DNA of 64,000 nt, taken from IMG/VR virus record IMGVR_UViG_3300046167_000873, positions 86,921 to 150,920 of that record; one strand, 5' to 3'. Each line of letters begins with the position of its first letter. Positions within the stretch are counted from its first letter, which is position 1. The notes below the pieces were generated by a model that was given only the letters and a program-made list of their open reading frames with translations, did no database searches and was not told where the DNA came from. Positions 44,640 to 59,189 of this stretch are shown here, one piece after another. Both the position numbers and the translations under genes were made by a program. The DNA is from a virus.

Positions 44640-44902
44640 CTAAAACACCTTCTTCTAAGTTTTTAAATTCGCCATAGCCTTCAACAAAGTTTTCACACAA
44701 GTCTTCAGCAAAACCAAGTGCATGATCATAGACGAGCCGTGTGGCCCACAGAGTCAATTCTTGCCTTCTCGCTAACTTTGTACAAACGACAAATATAACG
44801 AGCTTTTGGTGGATTAGTCAAGGACATAATACTATCTTTTGAAAGGATAGCTTTACGTGACTTATCTTGCGCGTAATATTGGGATACCGTTTCTTCTGTC
44901 AT
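44632..44902 (-). CDS. Hypothetical protein (apparent one-base insertion near 44765)
   Basis: MTEETVSQYY...YKVSEK then shifted frame QELTLWATRLVYDHALGFAEDLCENFVEGYGE..DE*; span is 3n+1 and fills the gap. Confidence 0.55.
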
Positions 44903-45918
44903 GCTTTTCTCCATGCTGTGAATATCAGTTTTGCTTCTAAACCAGATGATATATTACACTGTAATAACTCATTAATGATACCAATTTCATTATTTAATAC
45001 CATATCATTAATATCTTTAGAATTTATCCATTCAGGAAATATAACAATGCTGTATCCTTTATCTATTACTCTTTCCATTCTTTGGCATGTTTCTTTTGAT
45101 CGGGGTTCATTATCAAAAACAAACACTGAATTTTCGTTCACCAAATCATAATTTATAGATGCACCTGACATAGCGATACTATTATCTACGAACATCGAAT
45201 CGATAGGTCCCTCGAGAATATAGTGGGTTTTAGACCTATCACACTTGTCTAATCCGAAAGCTTTTGGCTTTGTTTTATCAAGCATTATAGTTATATATCT
45301 AAGACCTGACGGACGAAGGGAGCGCCCCTGAAAACCAAATAAAGATGAATCTTCATCTAAAAACGGAATGATAATGCGTGGTTCATCTTCACCAGGTTTT
45401 TTCGCTAAAAGGCTTTCATCGATATTCATTACCCATTCCATGAATTTTGGGGCATAGAATAGTCTATGGTGAGCAGTCGTTGGTATTTTTCTTGATACAA
45501 CATACTGCTTAACAGGATGGTGGTGTGGAAGCTGAGAGATTTTCTTTAGCTTCGCAAGAGGACTTAATTTAACAAACGTAGGGGGTTTCATCTTTGCTGC
45601 AAATATTTCAGCTTCAGACTTAACTCTTTTCTTAGAACCACCGGATTCGATTAACTTTTCTCTCACAAACTCTTGGTAGAGATTAGGATCAACCATTTCG
45701 ATGAGTTTATCGATACTTAGTGTTATAGAACAATTATGACAATGGTACAATAAACCAGAGGTTTTTGTATTTGGAAATATCCACCCTCTAGCTTTATATT
45801 TGTTTTTAAGGGAATCACCACATGCCGGACAGCGGAAGTTATACGTATCTTGCTTCTTCCTTTTAAACATGTCCAATCGGTTAGACATCAAACCTATATA
45901 CTTCTGTTCAAGCCACAT
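44899..45918 (-). CDS. gp61: DNA primase gp61
   Basis: NFRCPACGDS..YHCHNC zinc finger, RIIIP, GFQGRSL, ILEGPIDSMF, FDNEPR, KDINDM. Confidence 0.96.
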   Translation of the reverse strand: MWLEQKYIGLMSNRLDMFKRKKQDTYNFRCPACGDSLKNKYKARGWIFPNTKTSGLLYHCHNCSITLSIDKLIEMVDPNLYQEFVREKLIESGGSKKRVKSEAEIFAAKMKPPTFVKLSPLAKLKKISQLPHHHPVKQYVVSRKIPTTAHHRLFYAPKFMEWVMNIDESLLAKKPGEDEPRIIIPFLDEDSSLFGFQGRSLRPSGLRYITIMLDKTKPKAFGLDKCDRSKTHYILEGPIDSMFVDNSIAMSGASINYDLVNENSVFVFDNEPRSKETCQRMERVIDKGYSIVIFPEWINSKDINDMVLNNEIGIINELLQCNISSGLEAKLIFTAWRKA

Positions 45919-46433: not shown

Positions 46434-46895
46434 TTAAGGTCGATTAAAAATATTTTTTTCTAATGCTCTCGATCCAAACCAAAATGATATAATTGCGGCG
46501 AAAATAGCCTGAGTTTCTGGATCCCAAACAATCAATATTGCCGTTTGGAAATCTTGTGTTTCTGTTGCAGCCACTAGAGATGAAATCTTAACCGCGGCGA
46601 ACAACCCAAAAAATAAATAAGTTATAACAGGTCTTACACTCTTTCTTAACCAAGACAAAGGACCTGTGTCTTTCTGCATTGCTGTGTCGTGCGCAATCAA
46701 TCTTTGGTGTTCATTATCCAGTGCCATGGCTTGAAACTTCATCAGATCGATGTCTGCATTCTTCTCAGCCATCGTCATCTGCATTCTCATAATTTCAAGT
46801 TGCTTCTTATTATCTTCCTTCTTGCCAAAGTGATTAATTACACTTGGAACAGTGGATCCTAAGAAACCTACTATTGAACCCAATAAAGTTAACAT
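46434..46895 (-). CDS. Putative holin (GTA-type 3TM holin family)
   Basis: MLTLLGSIVGFLGS, LRKSVRPVITY, AAIISFWFGSR. Confidence 0.7.
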   Translation of the reverse strand: MLTLLGSIVGFLGSTVPSVINHFGKKEDNKKQLEIMRMQMTMAEKNADIDLMKFQAMALDNEHQRLIAHDTAMQKDTGPLSWLRKSVRPVITYLFFGLFAAVKISSLVAATETQDFQTAILIVWDPETQAIFAAIISFWFGSRALEKNIFNRP

Positions 46896-47407
46896 TACTT
46901 CATCATCTTAGATTGAAGTAGTCGTCGGCCACCGACTTCAATATAATTTCTTGTCAGTACCTGCGTCTTTCTTTTCTTTTTAATTCCTGGCTCACCATCA
47001 GGACCAACACCGATACCAGCAACCTGACCTGATCCCGCTGTATTCACTGGCGCTTCTTCTATAATCATTTGAGCTTCATCCATATACTTGTTCAATGTTT
47101 CTTCTAAGTAATCAAGATCATCTGCGTCAATGTTCTCTTCTCTTATAAGCAACAATGCTGCAGCAAATGAAGCAAGTCTTGTTTTGCCCGCAGGTAATTT
47201 ACCTAAAAGCTTTTTAAGGTTAGCAACTAAACGATCAAAGTATCCCCAAGATTTATCTTGATCAATACTCCTATTTTGTTTTGATACAATAACCTTTCCA
47301 TCTTTATCAATGACACCAGACTTATATGCATCCCATTTTTCAAAAGGCGTAACCAGTCTCCGAAGAAAACTGTATATTAATCCTATGTCTATTGCGCCCT
47401 TTGCCAT
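46895..47407 (-). CDS. Conserved T4-like hypothetical (probable virion) protein
   Basis: FLRRLVTPFEKWDAYKSGVIDKDG, RLVANLKKLL, ASFAAALLLIRE, then an EEAPVN..G..AG module. Confidence 0.75.
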   Translation of the reverse strand: MAKGAIDIGLIYSFLRRLVTPFEKWDAYKSGVIDKDGKVIVSKQNRSIDQDKSWGYFDRLVANLKKLLGKLPAGKTRLASFAAALLLIREENIDADDLDYLEETLNKYMDEAQMIIEEAPVNTAGSGQVAGIGVGPDGEPGIKKKRKTQVLTRNYIEVGGRRLLQSKMMK

Positions 47408-47796
47408 TATAGTTCCCTTAAAAGTTTTACTATATTAATATCAACTCCAATATCGTTTGATATTATATGGTTGCCTTCAGTTTCAATATGCTGTACTACT
47501 TCTGGCATCTTCGATAAAAACAACAAAAACGTTTTTAGTATCGGCCAATGATGACGGTCAATTTTAAAAAATAACATTCTTGTTGCACCATCATGTTGAA
47601 AAACGTTATATAGAGTAATCAAATGATTTAATATAAGCCTTTCTTTTAAATCATCATTTTTTTGATAACGAGAAAAAAGTCTTTTAAGATACTTAAATCT
47701 TTTTAGATCGTCATAAAACTCTTCAGTGTCATAACAAACGCTTGTATAATTTGCAGCAGCATATAATAAAAAATTAGATTCAGTCAATACCTTCAT
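47407..47796 (-). CDS. Conserved T4-like hypothetical protein
   Basis: NFLLYAA.NY, EFYDDLKRFKYLKRL, ERLILNHLI.LYNVF. Confidence 0.8.
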   Translation of the reverse strand: MKVLTESNFLLYAAANYTSVCYDTEEFYDDLKRFKYLKRLFSRYQKNDDLKERLILNHLITLYNVFQHDGATRMLFFKIDRHHWPILKTFLLFLSKMPEVVQHIETEGNHIISNDIGVDINIVKLLREL

Positions 47797-48211: not shown

Positions 48212-48250
48212 GGTTTTATCCTCTGAGTGGTTTACTTTTTATTTATCTGA

Positions 48251-49897
48251 TTATTTTTTTCGCATATTGCGAAGCTTCTTAAAATCCTTACTATCAATTT
48301 TGCCATCATCATGAACGTCCAGATGCTTATCTTGCGCTGGCGTTAGAGCTTCGTTCTTTTTAGCTAATTTTTTGGATGCAAGATCAGAGCCGTCTTCACG
48401 CTTTTTAGCTAAGTTTGCATTCTTCTTCATAGCAGGAGTATCATCCGCGAAATCACTTCGACGGCTTGCTGCCATTGAATAACTATTGCGAGCCTTAAGA
48501 GCTTTCTTGTTGGCCTTCTTAATATAAGATTTAAGAGTAGAAGTATCAAGCTCAACTACCTGCTTGACATCTTCGTGAACAGGATTTTCCCGATCAAAGA
48601 CTTTTTGGTCTGCACGATCTTGACCACGTTGTCGTTTAGCCATCTTCTTGTCGTGGTACTTCTTCCCCGCTTCGCCTGGATTATACTTGTCGCCAGCAAC
48701 AGCGTGCTTATCTGCTTCACGACCTGCTTTCTTAGAATAAGACTTAAGAGTAGAAGTATCAAGCTCATCAACCTGCTCGACTTCTTCGTTGTATCTCCTT
48801 TTAGCTCGATCAATACCGCTTTGACGTTTATCGGCTTTGGCGAATCTCTTGTTGCCTTTATCAAATTCCGAGTCGCTCATTTTAGTGTCGCCAAAGCTGG
48901 CTGCTGATTGACTCCTGTCTAAGTGATCCATACCATGTGCCTTGTTCACATTGCGGCTTTTTATTGCCTTGGATAGATAACTCTTAACAGTATTTTTTTT
49001 TAGTTCATTAACTTGCTCGACTTCGTCAGGTTGACTTACTGACTCGTGGTGAGTTTTCATACCAAGGTTCTTTTGGTTGTAACCCATCTTGTTCATATGC
49101 GACTTATATGCTTTGTGCGCTTCACTACCAGATCCACCAAGATGCTTCTTGACAAAATCGCCGTGAAAACCCTTCTTACCACTTGACACCATACCGTTAT
49201 CGTGGTTGTCTGCATCGCTAGTGTGCTGCTTTACTGCGGCAGCAGCTTTGTCGCCATGAACAGATTTAATTTTATTCAGGATCTGGCCAGCTGCTGCTTT
49301 ACCGTAGTTTTGAAAGTGCTTCGCAGCAAGGTGACCTAGATTGTTCTCATCGAGTTGACTCATTTCAGCAAAGTGACTTACTGACTCGTGATGAGTTTGC
49401 ATGCCAAGGTTCTTTTTCGTGTAACCCATCTTGTTCATGTGAGACTTGTACGCTTTATGTGCTTCACTGCCCGACCCGCCAAGATGCTTACTGACGAAAT
49501 CCTTGTGAAAACCCTTCTTGCCTGACGATACCGTGCCGTTATCATGGTTATCGGCATCAGCAGAGTGTTGCTTTACAGCAGCAGCAGCGGAAGCACCATG
49601 AACAGATTTGATTCGGTTCAGAGTCTGAGCAGCTGCTTGTGATGCTCGCTCTGGATTACGGTGACCTGACTCTGAGTTTGAGTTACTGTAGTGCTGGAAG
49701 TGCTTTGCAGCGAGGTGACCAAGATTGGACTCTTCAATTTGACTCATCTCGTCAAGATAGATGCTGTACGCTTCTTTGACAGACATTTTTTTCTTTTCAT
49801 CTGCTTTAGAAGCATGAACTGCTTTTCGTTGAGCATCTGATACATAACCCTCACGATTTAAAATTCGATCAATAAGATCTCTTGTTATATCTCTCAT
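48251..49897 (-). CDS. Putative capsid-internal polyprotein (basic modules separated by acidic linkers)
   Basis: Duplicated His-rich module, three ExVxQVxE linkers, EF-hand-like final module. Confidence 0.7.
   Translation of the reverse strand: MRDITRDLIDRILNREGYVSDAQRKAVHASKADEKKKMSVKEAYSIYLDEMSQIEESNLGHLAAKHFQHYSNSNSESGHRNPERASQAAAQTLNRIKSVHGASAAAAVKQHSADADNHDNGTVSSGKKGFHKDFVSKHLGGSGSEAHKAYKSHMNKMGYTKKNLGMQTHHESVSHFAEMSQLDENNLGHLAAKHFQNYGKAAAGQILNKIKSVHGDKAAAAVKQHTSDADNHDNGMVSSGKKGFHGDFVKKHLGGSGSEAHKAYKSHMNKMGYNQKNLGMKTHHESVSQPDEVEQVNELKKNTVKSYLSKAIKSRNVNKAHGMDHLDRSQSAASFGDTKMSDSEFDKGNKRFAKADKRQSGIDRAKRRYNEEVEQVDELDTSTLKSYSKKAGREADKHAVAGDKYNPGEAGKKYHDKKMAKRQRGQDRADQKVFDRENPVHEDVKQVVELDTSTLKSYIKKANKKALKARNSYSMAASRRSDFADDTPAMKKNANLAKKREDGSDLASKKLAKKNEALTPAQDKHLDVHDDGKIDSKDFKKLRNMRKK
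49033..49747 (-). repeat. Tandem intragenic duplication of a 110-125 aa module
   Basis: Copies about 49375-49747 and 49033-49363 share NLGHLAAKHFQ..IKSVHG..HLGGSGSEAHKAYKSHMNKMGY..THHESVS. Confidence 0.9.
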
Positions 49898-49909
49898 TGT
49901 TTATTCCCC

Positions 49910-50830
49910 TTATTTTAATAATTCTGGCATGTGTTTTTTAAATACTTTAAGAACATCTTTATCTGCATCTTTTGATTTTAAGAATGCTCTTAAATCCCTA
50001 GTGTCGTTATCTGCGGATTGATTTAAAAGAAACGCAGCCATTTCACCAGAAGATGATTTTATTTTCTTGAGTTCGTTTTCTACTTTACCTTTCTTTGCGA
50101 TCCGCATTTTCAAAGACGCTTCGTTTATCTTCGCAATAAGGCCGTCGACTTCTTCACGAGCGAGTTTCTTATTTGCTAACTCAATTCCCTTGCGTCTCTT
50201 CGCAGCACGAGCTTTGAATGTGTTTTTAATCCAAGCGTGCTGAGGCTCAGGGTAGTGAGATGCATTGGTCTCGCCAGCTTTAGCAGAAAGCTCTGACTTT
50301 TTCTTATAAGACTGTAAAGTAGATTTATCCAACTCATCAACCTGTTCGACGTCTTCTTTTCTATAAGGATAATCCGAAAGTTTACCAGTAGCACCAACTT
50401 TTGTTTTACCAGCTAATTTTTTATCTGCAAGATCGTGGCCTTTTTCACGGCGCTTTTGAATCTCAGTTGCACCCGCTGCTTTAGCATCACGGTGATGAAG
50501 TGCTGCTTGATCTTGGTATCGTTGGATTGTCTTTTTAGTCAGCTCATTAATTTGTTTTAACTCTTCAAGTGATCTCTGCTTTTTCCTATCGTATGAGCCT
50601 TTACCTTTTTTTGGTTTCATGGCGCCAGGTTTACGACCAGAAAGAATATCGCTTAACCTCTTTCTAGCAGATTTTTTATTCATATCTGCTTCTTTAATTT
50701 CCTTATCGCTCATTTTATCTTGTCCTGGAGTTTTATTTTTAAAATCTTTTACGCCTTCGGGTTCACCCCATTTGTGCAAAGGGCCGTCTGGATCTTTTTT
50801 ATTCGGCACCTGACTCACCGTTTTGATCAA
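49910..50830 (-). CDS. Putative capsid-internal polyprotein
   Basis: Lys-rich modules separated by EELKQINE, EDVEQVDE and EEVDGLIAKINE; start codon uncertain. Confidence 0.65.
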   Translation of the reverse strand: MIKTVSQVPNKKDPDGPLHKWGEPEGVKDFKNKTPGQDKMSDKEIKEADMNKKSARKRLSDILSGRKPGAMKPKKGKGSYDRKKQRSLEELKQINELTKKTIQRYQDQAALHHRDAKAAGATEIQKRREKGHDLADKKLAGKTKVGATGKLSDYPYRKEDVEQVDELDKSTLQSYKKKSELSAKAGETNASHYPEPQHAWIKNTFKARAAKRRKGIELANKKLAREEVDGLIAKINEASLKMRIAKKGKVENELKKIKSSSGEMAAFLLNQSADNDTRDLRAFLKSKDADKDVLKVFKKHMPELLK

Positions 50831-51011
50831 AGGTTACCGCAGGTTGTACCGGTTCAATAGTTGGTACTTCATTTTCTTTTGCTCTAGCATAAGCTGTTGC
50901 AGGATTAAATTGTGCCTCAGCGTTTTGCTGGTAAAGATCTTGATTCTTTTGAACGACATCTAAAACAGAAGCCATCAAATTAGCATTTTGTTTTGTACTT
51001 TTAATATCCAT
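50799..51011 (-). CDS. Hypothetical late protein
   Basis: AGGAG RBS and AATAAATA late-promoter variant upstream. Confidence 0.65.
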   Translation of the reverse strand: MDIKSTKQNANLMASVLDVVQKNQDLYQQNAEAQFNPATAYARAKENEVPTIEPVQPAVTFDQNGESGAE

Positions 51012-51041
51012 TGTGATAACTCCTATTGTGTCTGTTATTTA

Positions 51042-52661
51042 TTAAGCTAAATCTTTATCGTGGTTTAAACCACCTTTCTTCTTCTTCGTAATAAAGGCGT
51101 TTACGCGCGCATGTCCCCATTGTTGTGGAGTAGTACCAGGACGATGGCCTGTTTTCCATGCTGCAACACCACGGTTATAAACCTTTTTTAAAGTAGCTAC
51201 AGAAATACCAGACTTCTTTGACTTTTCAGCAAAACTATTTTCTTGTATAACTTCTTCTTTATTGAGTTTTTTATTTCTTGCATCACGTTCTTTCTTTAAC
51301 AACGCTGCAACTGCGCTCATTTTCTGACGATCAGCAGATGTAGGTTGATTTGCTTTAGATGCACGATAGTCAGCAAAGTTAGTTCCTTCATCAGCTTGCT
51401 CGACTTCTTCAGAGAAACCAAAGACCTTGTCTACCTTCTTCTTACCATACTTGGCACGTAAGATTTCAGAGACAGCACCTTCTTTATCATAACCCTTGAC
51501 ATCGTCACCTCTGTTTACAAGAGCAACTTTATTACGGAGTTGTTTGATAGGCATCTTCTTCAGTTCTTGATATTCTTTATACATCGGTGAAGACTTATCA
51601 ATCTTGCCTTCATCAACCTGCTCGACTTCTTCACCCTGCCACTCTGGTTCTTGTTTCTGTCTATTTTTCTGCAAATAATCATGATCTGCTTTAGTCCATT
51701 TTCCAGAACTAGACTTCTTACCAACTTCTTTCTTTACTTCCGGTTTTTTAGCCTGCTCGAGCGACTCTGGAACACAGTTAGGAACTTGCTTATCACCTTT
51801 CTTCTTCATGCCTTGTTGCTTATACCCTTTCCAACAAGTCTTTTCATCCATCATATTGTCAACAAATTTAGTAAATCTTGATTTCTTCATTGGCTTTTCT
51901 CTCGCTTCTTTATCTCCAGGTGCATCTTTATACGCTGATGGATTATCATCGCTCTTTGGACCGTGCTTCTTGAAGTGTGCATCTCGCTTTGCTTTTGTTG
52001 TTTTCTTTAAACCTTTGTGATATGCAGCGGGTTGGGTGCCCTCTCTATCTTTAATATCAGGATCTTGTGCTGACTTTTCTTCGGAGAACTCAACACCAGT
52101 TGCATGAGGCTTCAGATCTTTATGCAGTCTATCAGCATGTGCTTTACTCTTTGCTTTAAAGATTACACCCTTATCAGTAGAACCACCATACTTAATATGA
52201 CCAGCCTTTTCATGTTTCTTCATCACATCATTAGCTTTCTTTTGACGAGAATCACCATCGAGGTGATCAAGGCGTACATGAATCTCTGACTCAGTCATAG
52301 CGTTCTTGATTCGGGTATCTCTTCGACGTGCTTGATCCATCATGCGGTCATGCTTTTCTTTATCGGCTTGTTTTTCTCGCTGAATCTTTTCTCTCGCCAT
52401 CTTAGCATTGACACTTTCTTTTTGAAGTAACTCGTAAGCAACCTTTGCATCAATTGGCAAGCTATACTTGTCAACAATCTTTGAAACACGAAAAACCTTA
52501 GTTGCGCCGAGATTTTCTACTGTCTTTAATTTCTTTTTAATAAAATCAAGTGCTTTTTTATACTTCTTTCTATGAACTGTTTTTGCTCCAATAACTTTCA
52601 TCATTGACGCTGCTTCATCAACGCACTCACCTTCGTCTAAAAACTGACCAAACCTTTTCAT
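51042..52661 (-). CDS. Putative capsid-internal polyprotein with CTS-like N-terminus and DUF5824-like C-terminal module
   Basis: MKRFGQFLDE; CWKGYKQQGMKKKGDKQVPNCVPE; two EEVEQxDE linkers; KSGIS..LKKVYNRGVAAWKTGHRPGTTPQQWGHARVN. Confidence 0.75.
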   Translation of the reverse strand: MKRFGQFLDEGECVDEAASMMKVIGAKTVHRKKYKKALDFIKKKLKTVENLGATKVFRVSKIVDKYSLPIDAKVAYELLQKESVNAKMAREKIQREKQADKEKHDRMMDQARRRDTRIKNAMTESEIHVRLDHLDGDSRQKKANDVMKKHEKAGHIKYGGSTDKGVIFKAKSKAHADRLHKDLKPHATGVEFSEEKSAQDPDIKDREGTQPAAYHKGLKKTTKAKRDAHFKKHGPKSDDNPSAYKDAPGDKEAREKPMKKSRFTKFVDNMMDEKTCWKGYKQQGMKKKGDKQVPNCVPESLEQAKKPEVKKEVGKKSSSGKWTKADHDYLQKNRQKQEPEWQGEEVEQVDEGKIDKSSPMYKEYQELKKMPIKQLRNKVALVNRGDDVKGYDKEGAVSEILRAKYGKKKVDKVFGFSEEVEQADEGTNFADYRASKANQPTSADRQKMSAVAALLKKERDARNKKLNKEEVIQENSFAEKSKKSGISVATLKKVYNRGVAAWKTGHRPGTTPQQWGHARVNAFITKKKKGGLNHDKDLA

Positions 52662-53251
52662 TTTTTATCTCCAGATTTACCAATTAAACCTAAAACTTTT
52701 CTTTTGTTTTGAACAGTTAAACTATTAAAGTCTTGTTTCCAAGATTTTACATCACGAGAAGAAACTTGAGCAGCGTTACCAGCAGCAACACCAAGAACAA
52801 TTGCACCAATAAGCGCCATTTTTGCCAACTTGCCTTCTTCTAATGAATTGTTGCCTTCATATGCAATAAATGGTGTCTTTGATTGAAAGTTCTTTTTTCT
52901 CATAATCGTTTTTGCTTTAACAGCAATCATCTCTTTACCAGATCTATCTCTTTCAGGTTTAATCACTGCTGGTATATTAATCTTAGACTTCTTATCTTTT
53001 AATACAGCTTCAGAACCCTTTTTTGCTTTAATCTTTTTACCTTGTTGACCATCTATTTTATCGATGATTGAAGAAATCTCATCAGCAGAAATATCTGGCT
53101 TATTTCTAGGATCATTAATCCTGTCCCTAAAATGATTGCCTTTAATATCAAGATCAATCTTATGCTTCTTTAATTTTAAGTCGGCTTTTTTCTGCAATGC
53201 ATTCAACTCAGAATTTGAAACGTCTTCTTTAAATTGACTAAATGATTTCAT
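52658..53251 (-). CDS. Putative capsid-internal protein with CTS-like N-terminus
   Basis: Likely start MKSFSQFKE at 53251; HFRDRINDPRN..KTIMRKKNF module, then a second module after SLEE. Confidence 0.7.
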   Translation of the reverse strand: MKSFSQFKEDVSNSELNALQKKADLKLKKHKIDLDIKGNHFRDRINDPRNKPDISADEISSIIDKIDGQQGKKIKAKKGSEAVLKDKKSKINIPAVIKPERDRSGKEMIAVKAKTIMRKKNFQSKTPFIAYEGNNSLEEGKLAKMALIGAIVLGVAAGNAAQVSSRDVKSWKQDFNSLTVQNKRKVLGLIGKSGDKK

Positions 53252-53253
53252 CG

Positions 53254-54084
53254 TTAACAGTTCCAACGCTTTAATGACATTGCCTTCCTTGTCGGACGAC
53301 CTTTCTCGTCTTTCATAGGACCTTTCATTCCGCCCATTCGAGCACAAAATGATTTACGGCGCTTAGCAGCTTTACCGTCTGGATCGAGCTTACTTGGTGG
53401 AGTAGTTACAGCAGTTTTAACGCCAGCTGCCTTTGCACCTTTACGCGTCAAGCCAGCACCATCCTCGGTTGGTCGCCTATGACCTTTGGCATCATCACCA
53501 CGCTTATTTGGTTTGTCATCTTCGGTGATTGCGAGTTCAGTGTTGATAGCATCAAACGTTTCTTGAGCTGACATAGTATTGCGATATTCTAAAAATGCTT
53601 CCTTTAAATCTTCGTAGCATACATTGTACTTTTCGCTTTTCCTACGCAGATTCTTTTCAATCTTTTCGGTAATGATCTTCTTATATTCAGTTTCATAGAA
53701 ACCATAAACGACATTCATGATGTCATAGTTTTCACGACGAGTTTTTCTTGCTTGACTTAGCCTGCTCATTTCAGCTTTTCGTACTTTAGGAAGTAAGCGT
53801 TTAGCAAGACGAGCAATAACGGCTTTCTTATTAGATAATTTCTTATCAACCTGAGCTCGTTGTGAAAAGCCTAATTTTTTATAGTCTTGGCCGATCTTTC
53901 CTGCTAGTTTACCACGCAAAATTTGACGAGCTTGTTTTTGTGCCCGATTCTTTAGCTTTTTCTGGTCAGCCATTTTAAACTTTGCTTTCTTTCTTCCAAT
54001 TCTCAGTTTGCCCTTGATTCTTTTGGCAACCTGTCTTTTCTTCATTCTTTGCTGTAAATTTAGCACTTCATTGATATTAGACAT
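53254..54084 (-). CDS. Highly basic putative prohead-core/internal protein with DUF6321-like C-terminal module
   Basis: INE then an Arg/Lys-rich domain (LQQRMKKR..KLKNRAQKQAR); after AITE, GAGLTRKG..RRKSFCARMGG..SLKRWNC. Confidence 0.7.
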   Translation of the reverse strand: MSNINEVLNLQQRMKKRQVAKRIKGKLRIGRKKAKFKMADQKKLKNRAQKQARQILRGKLAGKIGQDYKKLGFSQRAQVDKKLSNKKAVIARLAKRLLPKVRKAEMSRLSQARKTRRENYDIMNVVYGFYETEYKKIITEKIEKNLRRKSEKYNVCYEDLKEAFLEYRNTMSAQETFDAINTELAITEDDKPNKRGDDAKGHRRPTEDGAGLTRKGAKAAGVKTAVTTPPSKLDPDGKAAKRRKSFCARMGGMKGPMKDEKGRPTRKAMSLKRWNC

Positions 54085-54209: not shown

Positions 54210-54818
54210 TTAAAATTCACTAAATGGAACGTGATCCCAGGGTAACATGGTCTTTGGATCGTTGGATAAGTTGACTATTTGTGTATCACCTTTAAGAGCG
54301 ATCAGGCGATCCATAAGCGTCTTATATGGATCGGCCATTGCAATATACTCAGGTACATTTTTAAATTGCCAGAGAGGATCTGGGATGCCTCTGGTTTGCA
54401 TATCATATCCAACACCGTATGCTGCAGTTGATCCATCTGGTTGTGGTGTATAGTTCATATCAAAACCAATACAACCAATATGAGTCGGTTTTAAGTGGTG
54501 AAGTATCCAATACATTGTACCGAAATAGATAGGCAGACCTAAGTAAATCCTTGCTTTTTCCCATGGCATCTTTGACATGCCGCAATACGATGCTTTGAAT
54601 CCAAGATTGCCTTCTCTCGAGTGTACTTTCTGATACGCTCTCTTTTTCATATAGAGTTGTTTTCTTAAATCTTGAGGATAATCACCTGCATGTATTAAAT
54701 GGTCCCATTTCGTTGTTACTCGCCAAACATTATTTACACCAACAACCGTAACTTTATCTGTGTGCCAGTCGTTTATTTGTACGAGACTTGGTCCTGATCC
54801 TGCTGCAATGACTTTCAA
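54210..54818 (-). CDS. Putative sugar-transfer protein (DUF115/sialyltransferase-like Rossmann fold)
   Basis: IAAGSGPSL, VVGVNN, HIGCIGFDM. Confidence 0.55.
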   Translation of the reverse strand: MKVIAAGSGPSLVQINDWHTDKVTVVGVNNVWRVTTKWDHLIHAGDYPQDLRKQLYMKKRAYQKVHSREGNLGFKASYCGMSKMPWEKARIYLGLPIYFGTMYWILHHLKPTHIGCIGFDMNYTPQPDGSTAAYGVGYDMQTRGIPDPLWQFKNVPEYIAMADPYKTLMDRLIALKGDTQIVNLSNDPKTMLPWDHVPFSEF

Positions 54819-55591
54819 AATCTACGGCCTCTTGCATGGTCTCTATCTTTAAACATAAAGCAGTCATAGTGACTGCCGTGATGACCTGTTTTTGTGAGAC
54901 TATCATTAAGTGTTTTGATTTCTCTGTATCCATATTTTTCATGGTTTTCAACAAATATATTATAGCCATGACTTCGCACTTCGTCTTCCATATCTTGCAT
55001 TGTATAGTTTTGTTCTTTTAATGCCAGATCACTGCATTCAATATAAAGGACAGGCGAGTGCTTCTTTAATAGTTCACGAAATCCTTTTAGCGCCCTAATT
55101 TCACTACCTTCAATATCCATCTTTACAAAATCAATACTATCCAAATCCTTAAACATTTCATCAAGAGTAAAACCTTTGACCCCTGTTTTAGATGGGTGGT
55201 ATTGCTTAATCCAGCTTTCGTTTGCTTTTACTCTTGATGGGTCTTTTACAGCCATTGTTTGATTACTATCAGAAACAATCGCATGGATTGGTGCGATAAC
55301 ATTCTCTAGTCGATTATGCTTTATATTTCTTAAAAGAACTTCATAGCTTTCATTAGTCGCTTCAACAGCATAAATCTTTGGTGGTTTACACTGCAACGCA
55401 AAAGGAATCGAGAAGGTTCCAACATGTGCACCAATATCTAAAACAATATCTGTGCTATGTATGACTTTTTGATCTAACATGATCTTTTGCTTTGGTGTTT
55501 GTAATCCACCGTATCTGACCATGTTACTGTATATTTTATCGTCTGGAACTTCGAGGTTGCCATACTTAGACTCGATCATTTTTGTTTTCAT
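54815..55591 (-). CDS. FkbM-family methyltransferase
   Basis: VLDIGAHVGTFS, AVEA, TLDEM, FVKMDIEGSE..LKG. Confidence 0.9.
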   Translation of the reverse strand: MKTKMIESKYGNLEVPDDKIYSNMVRYGGLQTPKQKIMLDQKVIHSTDIVLDIGAHVGTFSIPFALQCKPPKIYAVEATNESYEVLLRNIKHNRLENVIAPIHAIVSDSNQTMAVKDPSRVKANESWIKQYHPSKTGVKGFTLDEMFKDLDSIDFVKMDIEGSEIRALKGFRELLKKHSPVLYIECSDLALKEQNYTMQDMEDEVRSHGYNIFVENHEKYGYREIKTLNDSLTKTGHHGSHYDCFMFKDRDHARGRRF

Positions 55592-56178
55592 AGATACAGT
55601 TCCGTGTCGATTCTTGTGTGAGCCTTTATATTATATCCAAGTTCTGCATATAATTCTGCAACCTTATTTCTTTCTTCTATTGCTGCGTGCTTGTGTTCAA
55701 ATATAATTCTTTTTGGATACACTGACTTATCTTTCCCTACAAGGTACGAATAATAATCAATGAGTATTTTACAGTCATTGCCTTCTACATCAATCTTTAA
55801 CTGCTTTATTTCTTCAATCTGCTTTAACTCTATAAAATCACCGAGTGACATCTGCGGCACAGTTGTCTTTACAAACTTGTGTTCCATCTTAAACCGAATT
55901 GCTTCTGGGTGCATATAACCAATTGAGTTACAACCTTTCCACCAATAAGGTAGATTTTCTTGAGCAATGATTTCAGGTGGTATATGATATATTTCACATG
56001 TTCCATTTGTACCATCAGGTGAAATTGCAATACAGCATTTCTCTACCTTAGGTTTATTCGGTAACCTATCTAGATATGTTTGTATCGGCTCTATTGAGAA
56101 TCCAACAGTGTGATCATCAGCAACCTCGATTAATGTCCTAAAATCACTTGTACCAATTTCTATAAAATCCACATTCAT
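55588..56178 (-). CDS. FkbM-like methyltransferase
   Basis: FIEIGTSDF, SIEP, LKIDVEGND, IIFEH. Confidence 0.8.
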   Translation of the reverse strand: MNVDFIEIGTSDFRTLIEVADDHTVGFSIEPIQTYLDRLPNKPKVEKCCIAISPDGTNGTCEIYHIPPEIIAQENLPYWWKGCNSIGYMHPEAIRFKMEHKFVKTTVPQMSLGDFIELKQIEEIKQLKIDVEGNDCKILIDYYSYLVGKDKSVYPKRIIFEHKHAAIEERNKVAELYAELGYNIKAHTRIDTELYL

Positions 56179-56828
56179 TTCATAATCCTTTCATCATTAA
56201 ATTCTTCCTTCATCCAACCCTTATACTTACGGTGATAATGAATGAGTGTTTGATCAAATCTTGGTTCTTGATCCCAGCGGCCTAAATGCCAATTAAACTT
56301 TTCAGGCAATCCGTTAAACCTCTGCTGCTCAATCACAAATAGATTAATCATCAATTGATCCCATCCACCCATATGACCACCTGGTGGATTTTGAATATTC
56401 TTTTTAAAGTATTCACCGACCAAAGAATATATTTTTCGAGGAAATACAACAACACCAGAATTGCCATGTCCACCATGTGCATCTAACCATTGGTTTCTCG
56501 ATTTCAATTTCATTTGAACATAGTTAATTCTATCATCTTGTATATGATCAAATATATTATCAAAGTTATTAGTGGCGAGTATGTCGCTATCCATAAAACA
56601 AATTGCGTCGTAGTCTTCACACCAACCTTCAATAAACGGCAGAAAGATACCATAGAAAGGCGCATGCCCAAAATCATGGTCTAAAAACTTATAATCAGAT
56701 CTACACTTTTCAGCATACTTTGATACTGACTTACGACTTAACACGTGATATTCATACCCTAAATCTAAACACGGTCCATCTGTCGCACGTGCTCTATCTC
56801 TGTAATATTGGTATATTAATGTCTTCAT
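56175..56828 (-). CDS. Glycosyltransferase (GT-A, GT8/GT34-like)
   Basis: ICFMDSD DxD motif, NSGVV, DQLMIN, KFN, LIHY. Confidence 0.8.
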   Translation of the reverse strand: MKTLIYQYYRDRARATDGPCLDLGYEYHVLSRKSVSKYAEKCRSDYKFLDHDFGHAPFYGIFLPFIEGWCEDYDAICFMDSDILATNNFDNIFDHIQDDRINYVQMKLKSRNQWLDAHGGHGNSGVVVFPRKIYSLVGEYFKKNIQNPPGGHMGGWDQLMINLFVIEQQRFNGLPEKFNWHLGRWDQEPRFDQTLIHYHRKYKGWMKEEFNDERIMK

Positions 56829-57679
56829 ATTCTTTTTCTTCTTCTATAGCCTGCAGTTTTATTTGTTGGTTTATTCTTATACACATCTGTATTATTAGTA
56901 GTTGCCGGCTTCTCTGGTTCTGGCTTTGGCTTTTGTTTTCGTACCATTTTAGGTCTGTGTCTTGGGTGTGTTGTATCATGCGCCCCAATATAGTGTTCTG
57001 CAAATGATCCAATAAAGGGATAGTTCTTTGTGGCGCTTTTTGCCCAGATCGTACTTTTTCTTAACCAGCCAACTGCTGGTGTTGGCGACATAATTTTAAT
57101 CGGCACTTTTGTTTTGCGTGATTTTAAGAAGTGTGTATTATCTATAGCACCTGGAATACCAATATCTTCAAGCTCTTTTAAAAGAAGTCGTGCAGTTTCT
57201 GGTGTAATAGCATAAGCATGAGCACCTTCGTGGCCGGCACCAATAACATCTACAATTTCAGTCGGAGGGCCTGCTGTCACATGATCATAATCTTCTAATT
57301 TTTGTATCTTATATCCAAGTGCAATAATGCAGTTATCAATAAGATCGATATCTATCTTATGAAACATTACTGCATCATGTTCAAGAATAATCGCAGGCTT
57401 ACCGTGATCCCGTACTTTGCACCACGCCATTGCGTGACCTGATGTTGCGCATTGTGCTGTATTTCTTTTTGGTTTAAATGAATTAACGTTGAGTATCTTG
57501 GTTGGTACTTTTGCCCAAGCGTCCATTGCAACATTAGGTCCGCCGTGATTTCCATCAAACCACTCGATGTATTCCCATTCTAAACCAATTTTATCACACG
57601 AGTCAGAACAAACCTTTGCGTATTCTTCACTGATTAAATTGCCCTTCATCATAATAATAAAAGCTTTTGTTGGTTTCAT
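56825..57679 (-). CDS. Glycosyltransferase family 25-like protein with a basic C-terminal tail
   Basis: CATSGHAMAW, IILEHDA, GAHAYAITPETARLL. Confidence 0.8.
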   Translation of the reverse strand: MKPTKAFIIMMKGNLISEEYAKVCSDSCDKIGLEWEYIEWFDGNHGGPNVAMDAWAKVPTKILNVNSFKPKRNTAQCATSGHAMAWCKVRDHGKPAIILEHDAVMFHKIDIDLIDNCIIALGYKIQKLEDYDHVTAGPPTEIVDVIGAGHEGAHAYAITPETARLLLKELEDIGIPGAIDNTHFLKSRKTKVPIKIMSPTPAVGWLRKSTIWAKSATKNYPFIGSFAEHYIGAHDTTHPRHRPKMVRKQKPKPEPEKPATTNNTDVYKNKPTNKTAGYRRRKRI

Positions 57680-58341
57680 AAAAGAATATCTAGTGCTTCA
57701 AAATCATTAGCGTAGTATCTTAAAACAGCATCCTTTGTTTTTTGGTCATAATACTCTTCAACTAATTCGTTCATTGGTTTTTGTGGACGCTTACCTGACT
57801 TATGTTGTTTAATTGAGTGCTTGATACTATGGCTTTTACTAAAAAGTTCAAGCTCTTGATTTAAATTTTCATATCGCCATATTTCTATGTTTGGTTGGAT
57901 TTGATCAGCCACTTTAATATAATCAATTTGACAAAATGCATTATTAGTATCTGATTCGTGAACGCCGTTAGAAAACACTTCTCTAAAATGGTTTGCGCTA
58001 GGTTGTTTTCTCTGTTGCTTACACAAAAAGAAATATAGACTTAACTGTCGATCAAACGGATTACGGAGAACCATAATTTTAGTCATTGATTTTGCTTTAT
58101 CACGGGTGATAATCTCGTTACTCACTAATTCATCGAGAGTTAAATGTATAAACCTACTCTGATGTCTATACTTGGATAAGACTGCTGGTGGGATATTATT
58201 GTTGTTTATCCCACAATCATTGACCGCAGTATACTGATCATTAGAGTCACAACAATTCCTTACAAAAAATTCTGCAAGACTAGAGCTTGCATTTTTTGGG
58301 ACTCGTAAGAATATAAAATTGTTTGAATGAGATACTACCAC
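57676..58341 (-). CDS. Sulfotransferase family 2 protein
   Basis: FIFLRVPKNASSS (5'-PSB), RNPFDRQLSLY (3'-PB), YYANDF. Confidence 0.88.
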   Translation of the reverse strand: MVVSHSNNFIFLRVPKNASSSLAEFFVRNCCDSNDQYTAVNDCGINNNNIPPAVLSKYRHQSRFIHLTLDELVSNEIITRDKAKSMTKIMVLRNPFDRQLSLYFFLCKQQRKQPSANHFREVFSNGVHESDTNNAFCQIDYIKVADQIQPNIEIWRYENLNQELELFSKSHSIKHSIKQHKSGKRPQKPMNELVEEYYDQKTKDAVLRYYANDFEALDILL

Positions 58342-59189
58342 TATTCTGACGCCTCAATAGCATTATAGATTTTAAAATCATTCGAATAATATTCTTTGAT
58401 TTTATCAATTATATTTTGATCTAATGATTCGAAATGCTTATGGATTGTTTTATTGGATTGAAAATCTGGCAGTGATCTACCACACATTTCTTCTAGCATG
58501 GGCTTTATTTTGGTATCTATATCACATGTTCTATAGACAGTCATCGGCTTACTAAAGTCAATTGTCTCGCTCTGAAGCGTTAAAATAAACCCGCTATACA
58601 AGTGACTTAAAACAGAAACAATCCCTTCAACTGGCGCTTCTGGATCATACTCATAAGGTTTAATGTGTTGGTATTCAATAAAATCTAATGGCTTAAATTC
58701 AGTTAATCTTTCAGGTGAAAAGAGATCACGCAATTTTTTACTTGTATTATTAAAATGGTTTTTTTCTCTGTCTGACTTTGCCAAATATGTTACGTTAGTA
58801 TGTTCCCAATCGATTATCCGCATATGTAGATTATTAAGAGCAGACACAAATCGAATCATTGGATCTTGTACAATAGCAATACATACTACTGGCGCCAGGT
58901 CTGAAACTTCTTCCTCAAAGTTTGATCTATATTTTTCTTCTGAGGCCCTCAGATATTTGATTTTTGTTTCTGCTGAAATCTCACTGTTTAATTTCCGTTT
59001 TTCATACTGATTTGGATCAATTATCCAATTATCTAAATAATCACACGAATCTTCACCTGACGCAGCAGCAACAAGCAAATTCTTGATTGTTTTTGAACCA
59101 CACCTTGGATTAGAATGTACTCTTACATACGTATCGCCGGCTTTAATTATTAAATGCCCTGTATCACCAGGCTGTACTGAGGATTGCAT
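58341..59189 (-). CDS. Sulfotransferase family 2-like protein
   Basis: NPRCGSKTIK, QDPMIRFVSA, IKEYYSNDF. Confidence 0.75.
   Translation of the reverse strand: MQSSVQPGDTGHLIIKAGDTYVRVHSNPRCGSKTIKNLLVAAASGEDSCDYLDNWIIDPNQYEKRKLNSEISAETKIKYLRASEEKYRSNFEEEVSDLAPVVCIAIVQDPMIRFVSALNNLHMRIIDWEHTNVTYLAKSDREKNHFNNTSKKLRDLFSPERLTEFKPLDFIEYQHIKPYEYDPEAPVEGIVSVLSHLYSGFILTLQSETIDFSKPMTVYRTCDIDTKIKPMLEEMCGRSLPDFQSNKTIHKHFESLDQNIIDKIKEYYSNDFKIYNAIEASE

Follow-up and report, generated by a model that had tools for sequence, protein, structure and literature searches.

What would a phage gain from long, basic proteins that are built of small modules and interrupted by short acidic stretches? The question is raised by five adjacent genes, here named A to E, in a stretch of 64,000 nucleotides (the window) that forms the right-hand 64 kb of the 150.9-kb virus record IMGVR_UViG_3300046167_000873. 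The five open reading frames (ORFs) lie on the minus strand between positions 48251 and 54084, in the order E, D, C, B, A, where a sequence-only reading of this DNA had located them. Lys, Arg and His make up 23-28% of the five proteins, and Asp and Glu 11-15%. These genes probably encode cargo of the prohead core, in an expanded and concatenated version of the internal proteins of phage T4.

The source phage is a marine, pelagimyophage-like virus of the T4 type. T4-type baseplate genes, gp32, PhoH, nrdA/nrdB and a primase are encoded in the window, and the closest DNA relatives are Phage C48C1, Pelagibacter phage HTVC008M and Methylophilales phage Melnitz, all Kyanoviridae. The genes of the cluster and their parts are as follows.

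53254-54084, minus strand: gene E, 276 aa, from the ORF list and profile scans
54067-54084, minus strand: leader of E, MSNINE, 6 residues
residues 7-140 of E: basic helical module, net charge +34
53521-53532, minus strand: AITE, the end of the middle module of E
53263-53457, minus strand: C-terminal DUF6321 of E
52658-53251, minus strand: gene D, 197 aa, taken to start at MKSFSQFKE
53225-53251, minus strand: leader of D, MKSFSQFKE, followed by a 130-aa module
52835-52846, minus strand: joint SLEE of D
52661-52834, minus strand: tail of D, with a hydrophobic helix
51042-52661, minus strand: gene C, 539 aa
52632-52661, minus strand: T4-type leader of C, MKRFGQFLDE, followed by a second site, GECVDE
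51609-51632, 51387-51410 and 51240-51257, minus strand: acidic linkers of C
51054-51230, minus strand: C-terminal DUF5824 of C
50799-51011, minus strand: acidic ORF of 70 aa between C and B, with a good ribosome-binding site, missed by the sequence-only reading
49910-50830, minus strand: gene B, about 302-306 aa
50543-50566 and 50333-50356, minus strand: acidic linkers of B
50357-50542 and 50144-50332, minus strand: two hairpin modules of B
48251-49897, minus strand: gene A, 548 aa
49730-49747 and 49346-49363, minus strand: joints MSQIEE and MSQLDE of A
49364-49729 and 49028-49345, minus strand: two His-rich modules of A
49004-49027, 48764-48787 and 48551-48574, minus strand: acidic linkers of A
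48788-49003, 48575-48763 and 48338-48550, minus strand: three hairpin modules of A
48266-48358, minus strand: EF-hand-like DxDxDG tail of A, residues 514-544

Linkers and module junctions

All the linkers on which the idea of cleavable polyproteins had been based, from acidic octapeptides such as EEVEQVDE to the short joints AITE and SLEE, are present in the five proteins. Cutting at them yields modules of 26-134 residues with net charges of +3 to +34, separated by peptides of net charge -2 to -4. A, B and C together contain seven matches to the acidic octapeptide pattern, whereas 2000 composition-preserving shuffles gave none; the full octapeptide was not found in the other frames of the 150.9-kb genome. 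The earlier estimate of some 20 fragments stands if only leaders and acidic linkers are cut, but cutting at every L/I/V-x-E would raise the number to about 33.

The rule that governs these junctions is best seen in the module of about 65 residues that is present three times in A and twice in B. When a profile of these copies was run against 1.84 billion cluster representatives, 314 proteins matched, some with as many as eight copies. At 426 junctions that precede this hairpin module in other proteins (about 150, divergent), Glu occupies P1 in 99.8% and Asp in none, and Leu, Ile or Val occupies P3 in 99.8%; P2 is variable, with Asp dominant. Where the module is N-terminal, it follows a T4-like leader (MKTYKTVITE/LSK..., MKHYKDLVSE/ISR..., the slash marking the joint) or a short M..LNE peptide that ends in the same register as the linker, and one homologue begins directly at the module, with neither leader nor linker. 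The same rule extends to unrelated modules. DUF5824 is almost always preceded by hydrophobic-x-E in 74 distinct junctions, regardless of what lies upstream, and the His-rich module is preceded by an L/I/V-x-E joint. The basic module of E follows ...SLEE/ALNAQQ in the related locus L008 versus MSNINE/VLNLQQ in the window.

The motif is avoided inside the modules. Within the variable loops of the hairpin, L/I/V-x-E occurs four times against 53.8 expected, an approximately 15-fold avoidance; with a single hairpin module taken per protein, the count is 1.0 against 18.5 expected (Poisson 2e-7). The control motifs L/I/V-x-D, E-x-L/I/V and L/I/V-E occur in these loops at 0.9-1.0 of expectation, and L/I/V-x-E is 1.5-fold enriched elsewhere in the same proteins. 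An AlphaFold2 model of linker, module and linker gives a two-helix hairpin with pLDDT above 90 and two non-helical linkers with pLDDT of 51-58.

The linkers thus behave as selection for a protease site predicts, with a Glu-only P1, avoidance of the motif in the modules and the register of the leader ends. Together with the model of the linkers, these observations favour exposure of the proteins to a Glu-specific L/I/V-x-E protease, and modules that are meant to survive it. The acidic stretch was also considered as the start of the first helix of the module. This reading was rejected because the modelled helix begins past the joint, the linker precedes unrelated modules and one homologue has no linker.

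No Pfam family covers the hairpin module in ten of the 314 proteins that were scanned, and a Foldseek search of the PDB with the hairpin model returned generic helical hairpins only, none at E <= 0.001; a function based on the fold therefore cannot be claimed. The ESM Atlas gave no usable match for the His-rich modules.

The conservation of the seven acidic linkers (window 48551-51632) extends to their DNA, which has a mean pairwise identity of 78% and favours the valine codon GTC, a minority codon in the cluster genes. Both features are consistent with spread of the linker by duplication or recombination at the joint. The description of this arrangement as a 'repeat-spacer' design is only an analogy.

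Leaders and prohead protease

In T4, gp21 cuts after L/I-x-Glu, and leader genetics assigns residues 4 and 7 to targeting and residues 8 and 10 to processing, which is blocked by Asp at position 10 (PMC9026906). In the T4 record, ipII and ipIII begin MKTYQEFIAE/A and ipI begins MKTFKEF.... The claim that MKRFGQFLDE of C and MKSFSQFKE of D are true capsid-targeting sequences of this type is supported by comparison with T4 ipI-III and by similar leaders in homologues. The leader of C fits MKTYQEFIAE at all four key positions (4, 7, 8 and 10), and that of D is a nine-residue variant; across the genome, C and D are the only genes whose real starts fit a strict pattern for the T4 leader. D likely starts at MKSFSQFKE, at 53251 and 2 nt past the stop codon of E, and the TTG at 53347 proposed by the ORF lister was set aside. 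Homologues of C number more than 1277 in metagenomes, and most of the 120 listed begin with T4-type leaders (MKTFKEFINE, MNIFKEYTE). Homologues of C fused to a cytidylyltransferase occur both with and without a leader; therefore, the leader acts as a detachable tag.

The source genome encodes a prohead protease of the gp21 type (Peptidase_S77, E 1e-38, 129 bits against a cut-off of 27). Its gene lies outside the window and adjoins the scaffold and major capsid genes:

48390-49052 of the source genome (G000): Peptidase_S77 protease gene

The scaffold is rich in L/I/V-x-Glu motifs (23 in 352 aa), and ALRE/N of the major capsid protein aligns with the maturation site FLTE/A of T4 gp23. A search of IMG/VR with a degenerate DNA pattern of the linker plus module found 49 records; Peptidase_S77 is present in all six pattern-bearing records of at least 100 kb, and in both records that are at least 90% complete. 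In one relative, a 958-aa chain with the leader MKTFRQIISE and eight module stretches is located between the portal gene and an 82-aa gene followed by Peptidase_S77, scaffold and Gp23, which is the gp67/68 slot of T4. A 1188-aa polyprotein of another relative sits two genes upstream of the protease.

Also upstream of the protease, the source genome encodes a 246-aa protein in the gp67/68 neighbourhood (G000 50015-50755, outside the window), with mixed acidic and basic segments and several L/I/V-x-E motifs.

T4-like leaders are also borne in relatives (MMLDFKNFITE, MKKFNNFIIE) by a protein of about 410 aa with a KxDG nucleotidyltransferase-like motif (L002 4558-5781, L003 3413-4645, L004 4555-5811, L008 1575-2804). 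The L009 counterpart, of 409 aa, is assigned to DUF6267 in Pfam. The cluster of the window lacks this protein of about 410 aa, which is probably another packaged enzyme.

Module exchange among relatives

In line with the sequence-only reading, module order and content vary while linkers persist: L008, C48C1, HTVC008M, Melnitz, L009 and phiM12 differ from one another at the joints. In L008, the homologue of C contains six acidic linkers and differs in content, and a cytidylyltransferase is fused in front of E as a whole. C48C1 encodes DUF5824 as a gene of its own (90 aa) that bears a leader, and phiM12_458 joins E-like and D-like modules. Basic proteins of C48C1 and Melnitz that occur singly and carry a leader are homologues of the N-terminal module of E. 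The 130-aa module of D is also C-terminal in mosaic proteins of L009 and phiM12_458, and the structural neighbours of D in the ESM Atlas are viral mosaics of cytidylyltransferase and DUF5824. Modules are thus gained, lost, fused and split at joints, and the homologues are therefore not collinear over their full length. Enzymes fused into the chains of relatives include cytidylyltransferase/NMNAT-like proteins, a zeta-toxin/AAA kinase and HNH.

A search for related loci with protein A as query found one close relative only, and 50,697 phage records contained no tblastn match to A or D, probably because of low-complexity filtering and the mosaic nature of the proteins. L009 is syntenic with the window: its methyl- and glycosyltransferase genes are accompanied by genes for a mosaic of 1017 aa and a hairpin chain of 702 aa, by DUF7207 and by nrd genes.

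Virion proteins of cyanophage S-SCSM1

The cultured cyanophage S-SCSM1 offers evidence from particles. Mass spectrometry of particles purified on CsCl is the basis on which its genes 89-93, 95 and 97 carry the annotation of virion proteins (PMC9602691). The proposal that such proteins travel in the capsid thus gains support from a cultured relative, in which most products of the syntenic cluster were found by mass spectrometry (PMC9602691). These genes are followed by holin-like, primase, nrdA and nrdB genes, in the same order as in the window, where downstream of the cluster come:

47407-47796, minus strand: DUF7207 gene, the synteny anchor downstream of the cluster
46434-46895: holin-like gene, past DUF7207
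44899-45918: primase gene, followed by nrdA/nrdB

The order DUF7207, holin-like, primase, nrdA/nrdB is repeated in L009, phiM12 and S-SCSM1, and the DUF7207 protein of the window is 41% identical to SSCSM1_96. The design is shared as well. Genes 89 and 92 of S-SCSM1 encode basic mosaics with joints of the EEVENVDE and EEVELDE types, and gene 91 (NMNAT) begins MKSFLQFLKE/A, a leader that also begins the cytidylyltransferases of P-SSM2 and S-RIM50. According to the authors of the S-SCSM1 study, NMNAT-like proteins are recurrent in cyanophage virion proteomes (PMC9602691).

Proposed route of the cargo

Proteins C, D and perhaps E would be drawn into the scaffolding core by their N-terminal capsid-targeting sequences. 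During maturation, the gp21-type serine protease would cut after the Glu of L/I/V-x-Glu, at the leader ends and the flexible acidic linkers. The chains would thereby be broken down to small modules of 3-15 kDa, most of them basic (helical hairpins, His-rich modules, DUF5824 and DUF6321), and the remnants of the acidic linkers would be lost. The basic modules would most likely remain with the packaged DNA as counter-ions and exit the capsid with it. Gain, loss, fusion and splitting of modules among related phages take place at the linker, which is conserved also as DNA. For the repeated basic hairpins, a bulk role as DNA counter-ions that are co-ejected is favoured, and the anti-defence reading of the modules is a minority possibility.

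Several points weigh against this reading. BLAST similarity between A-E and the virion proteins of S-SCSM1 is marginal; the link therefore rests on synteny and shared design, and supports the locus rather than each protein. The S-SCSM1 authors also allow that NMNAT is a possible contaminant of the virion preparation (PMC9602691). Among the leaders, that of D is nine residues long with Phe at P3, that of E is truncated to the six-residue MSNINE, and A and B have none of the T4 type. One linker (EEVEQADE) has Ala at P3, which is non-canonical for T4 gp21. The L-S-K-x-T-L sequence that follows the cut is extremely conserved and belongs to the module, and part of the conservation of the joint upstream of it could be structural. 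The placement of the cluster in a late region holds only as a suggestion: ATAAATA elements are intergenic at 51036-51042 and 48240-48246, and TATAAGTA stands ahead of E, but the motif has no overall enrichment in the window. Targeting, cleavage, retention, ejection and function are all steps that we infer for the source phage.

Alternative explanations

The locus of the hairpin polyproteins in relatives, which fill the gp67/68 slot between portal and protease, would also suit another fate, in which the proteins are gp67/gp68-like assembly factors of the prohead core that are packaged and cut, their pieces being expelled before or during DNA packaging; their role would be head assembly or size control, and nothing would be delivered. 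T4 provides precedents, as cleavage of gp22, gp67 and gp68 gives several pieces each, most of which are lost from the head (PMC9026906), and gp68 combines an acidic, site-rich N-terminal half with a strongly basic C-terminal tail. However, the hairpin profile has no similarity to T4 gp67 or gp68, the cluster of the source genome lies far from its head genes, and DNA would be bound by the released modules, which are basic. Exclusion of the motif from module interiors suggests survival, unlike the scaffold of the source genome with its many sites. The cytidylyltransferase/NMNAT-like and zeta-type kinase domains fused in relatives would be odd in a scaffold, and NMNAT is reported in mature virions. 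An assembly role of this kind is quite unlikely. A role away from the capsid is very improbable. The proteins would then be cytoplasmic, non-packaged, nucleic-acid-binding repeat proteins, with the acidic stretches as flexible or autoinhibitory spacers and the likeness to protease sites and leaders coincidental. Such a role would suit the position of the cluster among replication and nucleotide-metabolism genes, the conservation of the joint well past P3 and P1, and the podophage DUF6321, which works without linkers. Yet Glu at P1 is never replaced by Asp in the 426 junctions, though Asp dominates P2, which matches the block that Asp imposes on processing in T4. The avoidance inside modules is specific to the motif, one type of joint precedes unrelated modules, the key positions of the leaders are identical to those of T4 ipI-III, the modules co-occur with Peptidase_S77 and often adjoin it, and virions have yielded products of the syntenic cluster.

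A further alternative accepts packaging and cleavage and differs in what the modules do. They would mainly be injected effectors that form a variable arsenal against host defences or for takeover of the host, as T4 IPI* acts against GmrSD, rather than DNA counter-ions. The internal proteins of T4 are diverse defence inhibitors with only the targeting sequence in common (PMC3012670), modules turn over fast between close relatives, and NMNAT-like, zeta-toxin/AAA kinase and HNH domains are fused to the same chains in relatives. In the window, however, the modules have no recognisable effector or inhibitor fold, and the commonest is a generic two-helix basic hairpin, with up to eight per chain, which fits a bulk charge role better than specific inhibition. 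Scans of ten proteins against Pfam and PHROGs matched no named family of defence or anti-defence proteins (PADLOC was not scanned). An arsenal as the main role is doubtful. The cargo reading can be extended to a broader proposal, which is tentative. Some 20 modules from a few polyproteins would be carried in the capsid of marine T4-like phages, the acidic linker would serve as a joint for both the protease and DNA recombination and thus enable swaps, some modules or fused enzymes would be ejected as host-takeover or anti-defence factors, and the hairpins would replace host polyamines as counter-ions in nutrient-poor hosts.

Further features of the cluster and its neighbourhood

The 70-aa acidic ORF between C and B is preceded by the element AATAAATA (51036-51042), and its end overlaps the start of B in the +1 frame; a homologous arrangement occurs in L008. 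A +1 frameshift that would fuse this ORF to B was dropped because relatives give the B-type N-terminus its own start codon. The GTG at 50818 is the probable start codon of B, in agreement with the database cluster P0124. Its N-terminus (DPDGPLHKWGEPEG ... KTPGQ; 50690-50830) is conserved and not T4-like. An N-terminus of the DPDGPLHKWGEPEG type and a recurring K-T/D-T-P-G-Q motif are found in many relatives (L008 7440-7560 and mosaics of HTVC008M, C48C1 and Melnitz), and in L008 this N-terminus is followed by an internal T4-like leader, MKSFKEIQQE. The sequence may be a second kind of joint or signal.

The C-terminal 58 residues of D past SLEE contain a transmembrane-like hydrophobic helix followed by a basic tail, and the D-type module of L009 and phiM12 ends without this helix. 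The C-terminal module of D could be a membrane-active fragment. An AlphaFold model of E from the single sequence is poor (pLDDT 64.8), with long helices in residues 2-153 and the DUF6321 part unmodelled. The EF-hand- or dockerin-like mini-module at the end of A (..K-L/I-D-x-N/D-x-D-G-x-I/V-D-x-x-D-F-x-x-L-R-K-K) recurs in L012, L003, L004 and many representatives, and in Pfam it matches Dockerin_1 only, below threshold. It may be a Ca2+-binding loop within capsid cargo.

Methyltransferase and glycosyltransferase genes (window 54210-59189) lie directly upstream of the cluster and are syntenic in L008 and L009; the neighbourhood is therefore conserved together with the cargo genes.

DUF6321 is also found in T7-like podophages, stand-alone, without leader or acidic linker and with almost no acidic residues. 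In the cyano- and pelagipodophages L005 (2408-2778) and L006 (2247-2641), it is a protein of 71-81 aa encoded between the scaffold and capsid genes, where a second very basic protein of 49-50 aa is also located. This suggests that small basic head-associated proteins exist beyond T4-like phages. Synechococcus phage ACG-2014f (L007 1610-4129) encodes an 839-aa mosaic between gp16 and gp17 that ends in DUF6321 and has another repeated joint-like motif, E-x-F-S-N/S-W-R-D/N-D/N, which is also present in SSCSM1_92.

Significance

The T4 capsid-targeting sequence and gp21 processing are textbook knowledge, but only for single small proteins of coliphages. In relatives of T4, other basic proteins carry leader-like sequences, and the leader has been suggested as a general loading device (PMC9026906). 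Multi-site cleavage of gp22, gp67 and gp68 and the idea of polyvalent proteins are likewise known. The new element is the polyprotein format, with its near-invariant acidic joint, avoidance of the cut motif in modules and very wide spread in marine T4-like phages. In searches of the literature on internal proteins or capsid targeting of cyanophages and pelagiphages, such a design was not encountered, and no paper on DUF5824, DUF6321 or DUF7207 was found.

If the cargo reading is correct, one address tag and one cut rule would apply across abundant ocean phages (pelagimyophages, cyanomyophages and their rhizobiophage relatives), which would load long modular chains and cut them into many pieces. 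A function would be provided for DUF5824 and for unnamed module families in hundreds to thousands of metagenomic proteins; DUF6321 occurs also outside the setting of capsid cargo. The recurrence of NMNAT-like enzymes in cyanophage virion proteomes would be explained. The rule of leader, joint and avoidance would allow capsid cargo to be predicted from sequence alone, and the format would be a natural design for packing several proteins into T4-type capsids.

Comparison with known systems

The prohead proteases of the giant phages phiKZ, 201phi2-1 and SPN3US recognise the motif S/A/G-x-E. In these phages, cleavage after the Glu of a short motif processes many inner-body or ejection proteins, whose propeptides contain redundant sites (PMC9026906). 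There, propeptides are removed from single proteins, and a polyprotein of repeated modules with a fixed linker is not described.

Polyvalent proteins of phages and conjugative elements are multi-domain chains predicted to travel with the DNA, with domains shuffled between elements, and some have been proposed to be proteolytically processed (Iyer et al. 2017, PMC5512222); the text of that study does not mention cyanophages. They contain recognisable effector enzymes and would be processed by a peptidase domain within the chain, whereas the cluster has mostly small basic modules and a separate prohead protease that would act at a conserved linker. The cluster proteins contain only DUF5824, DUF6321 and unnamed modules in place of several recognisable conflict-effector domains, and no in-chain peptidase was seen in them or in their relatives.

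The core proteins gp22, gp67 and gp68 of T4 are cleaved by gp21 at many sites into small fragments, as is proposed for the cluster proteins. However, gp67 and gp68 have no detectable homology to the hairpin module, and the cluster of the source genome lies outside the slot between portal and protease. The T4 core proteins are site-rich throughout and are destroyed, while the cluster proteins keep their sites at joints and avoid them inside modules.

The closest likeness is to T4 IPI, IPII, IPIII and Alt. It covers the 10-residue leader (aromatic residue at 4, Phe at 7, Leu or Ile at 8 and Glu at 10, as in C), the gp21-family protease with its L/I-x-Glu cut rule, and basic, fast-evolving cargo genes placed away from the head genes. 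Beyond the leader, IPI-III have no sequence similarity to the cluster proteins, of which two of five lack a T4-like leader. Pfam and PHROG scans of the five proteins found no internal-protein or Alt family, the sole functional label being cytidyltransferase. T4 cargo consists of single units that lose terminal propeptides only, whereas the cluster chains join several unrelated or repeated modules through conserved internal acidic joints. As far as sequence comparison goes, the cluster proteins would be proteins that work like the internal proteins of T4 and are not homologues of the known members.

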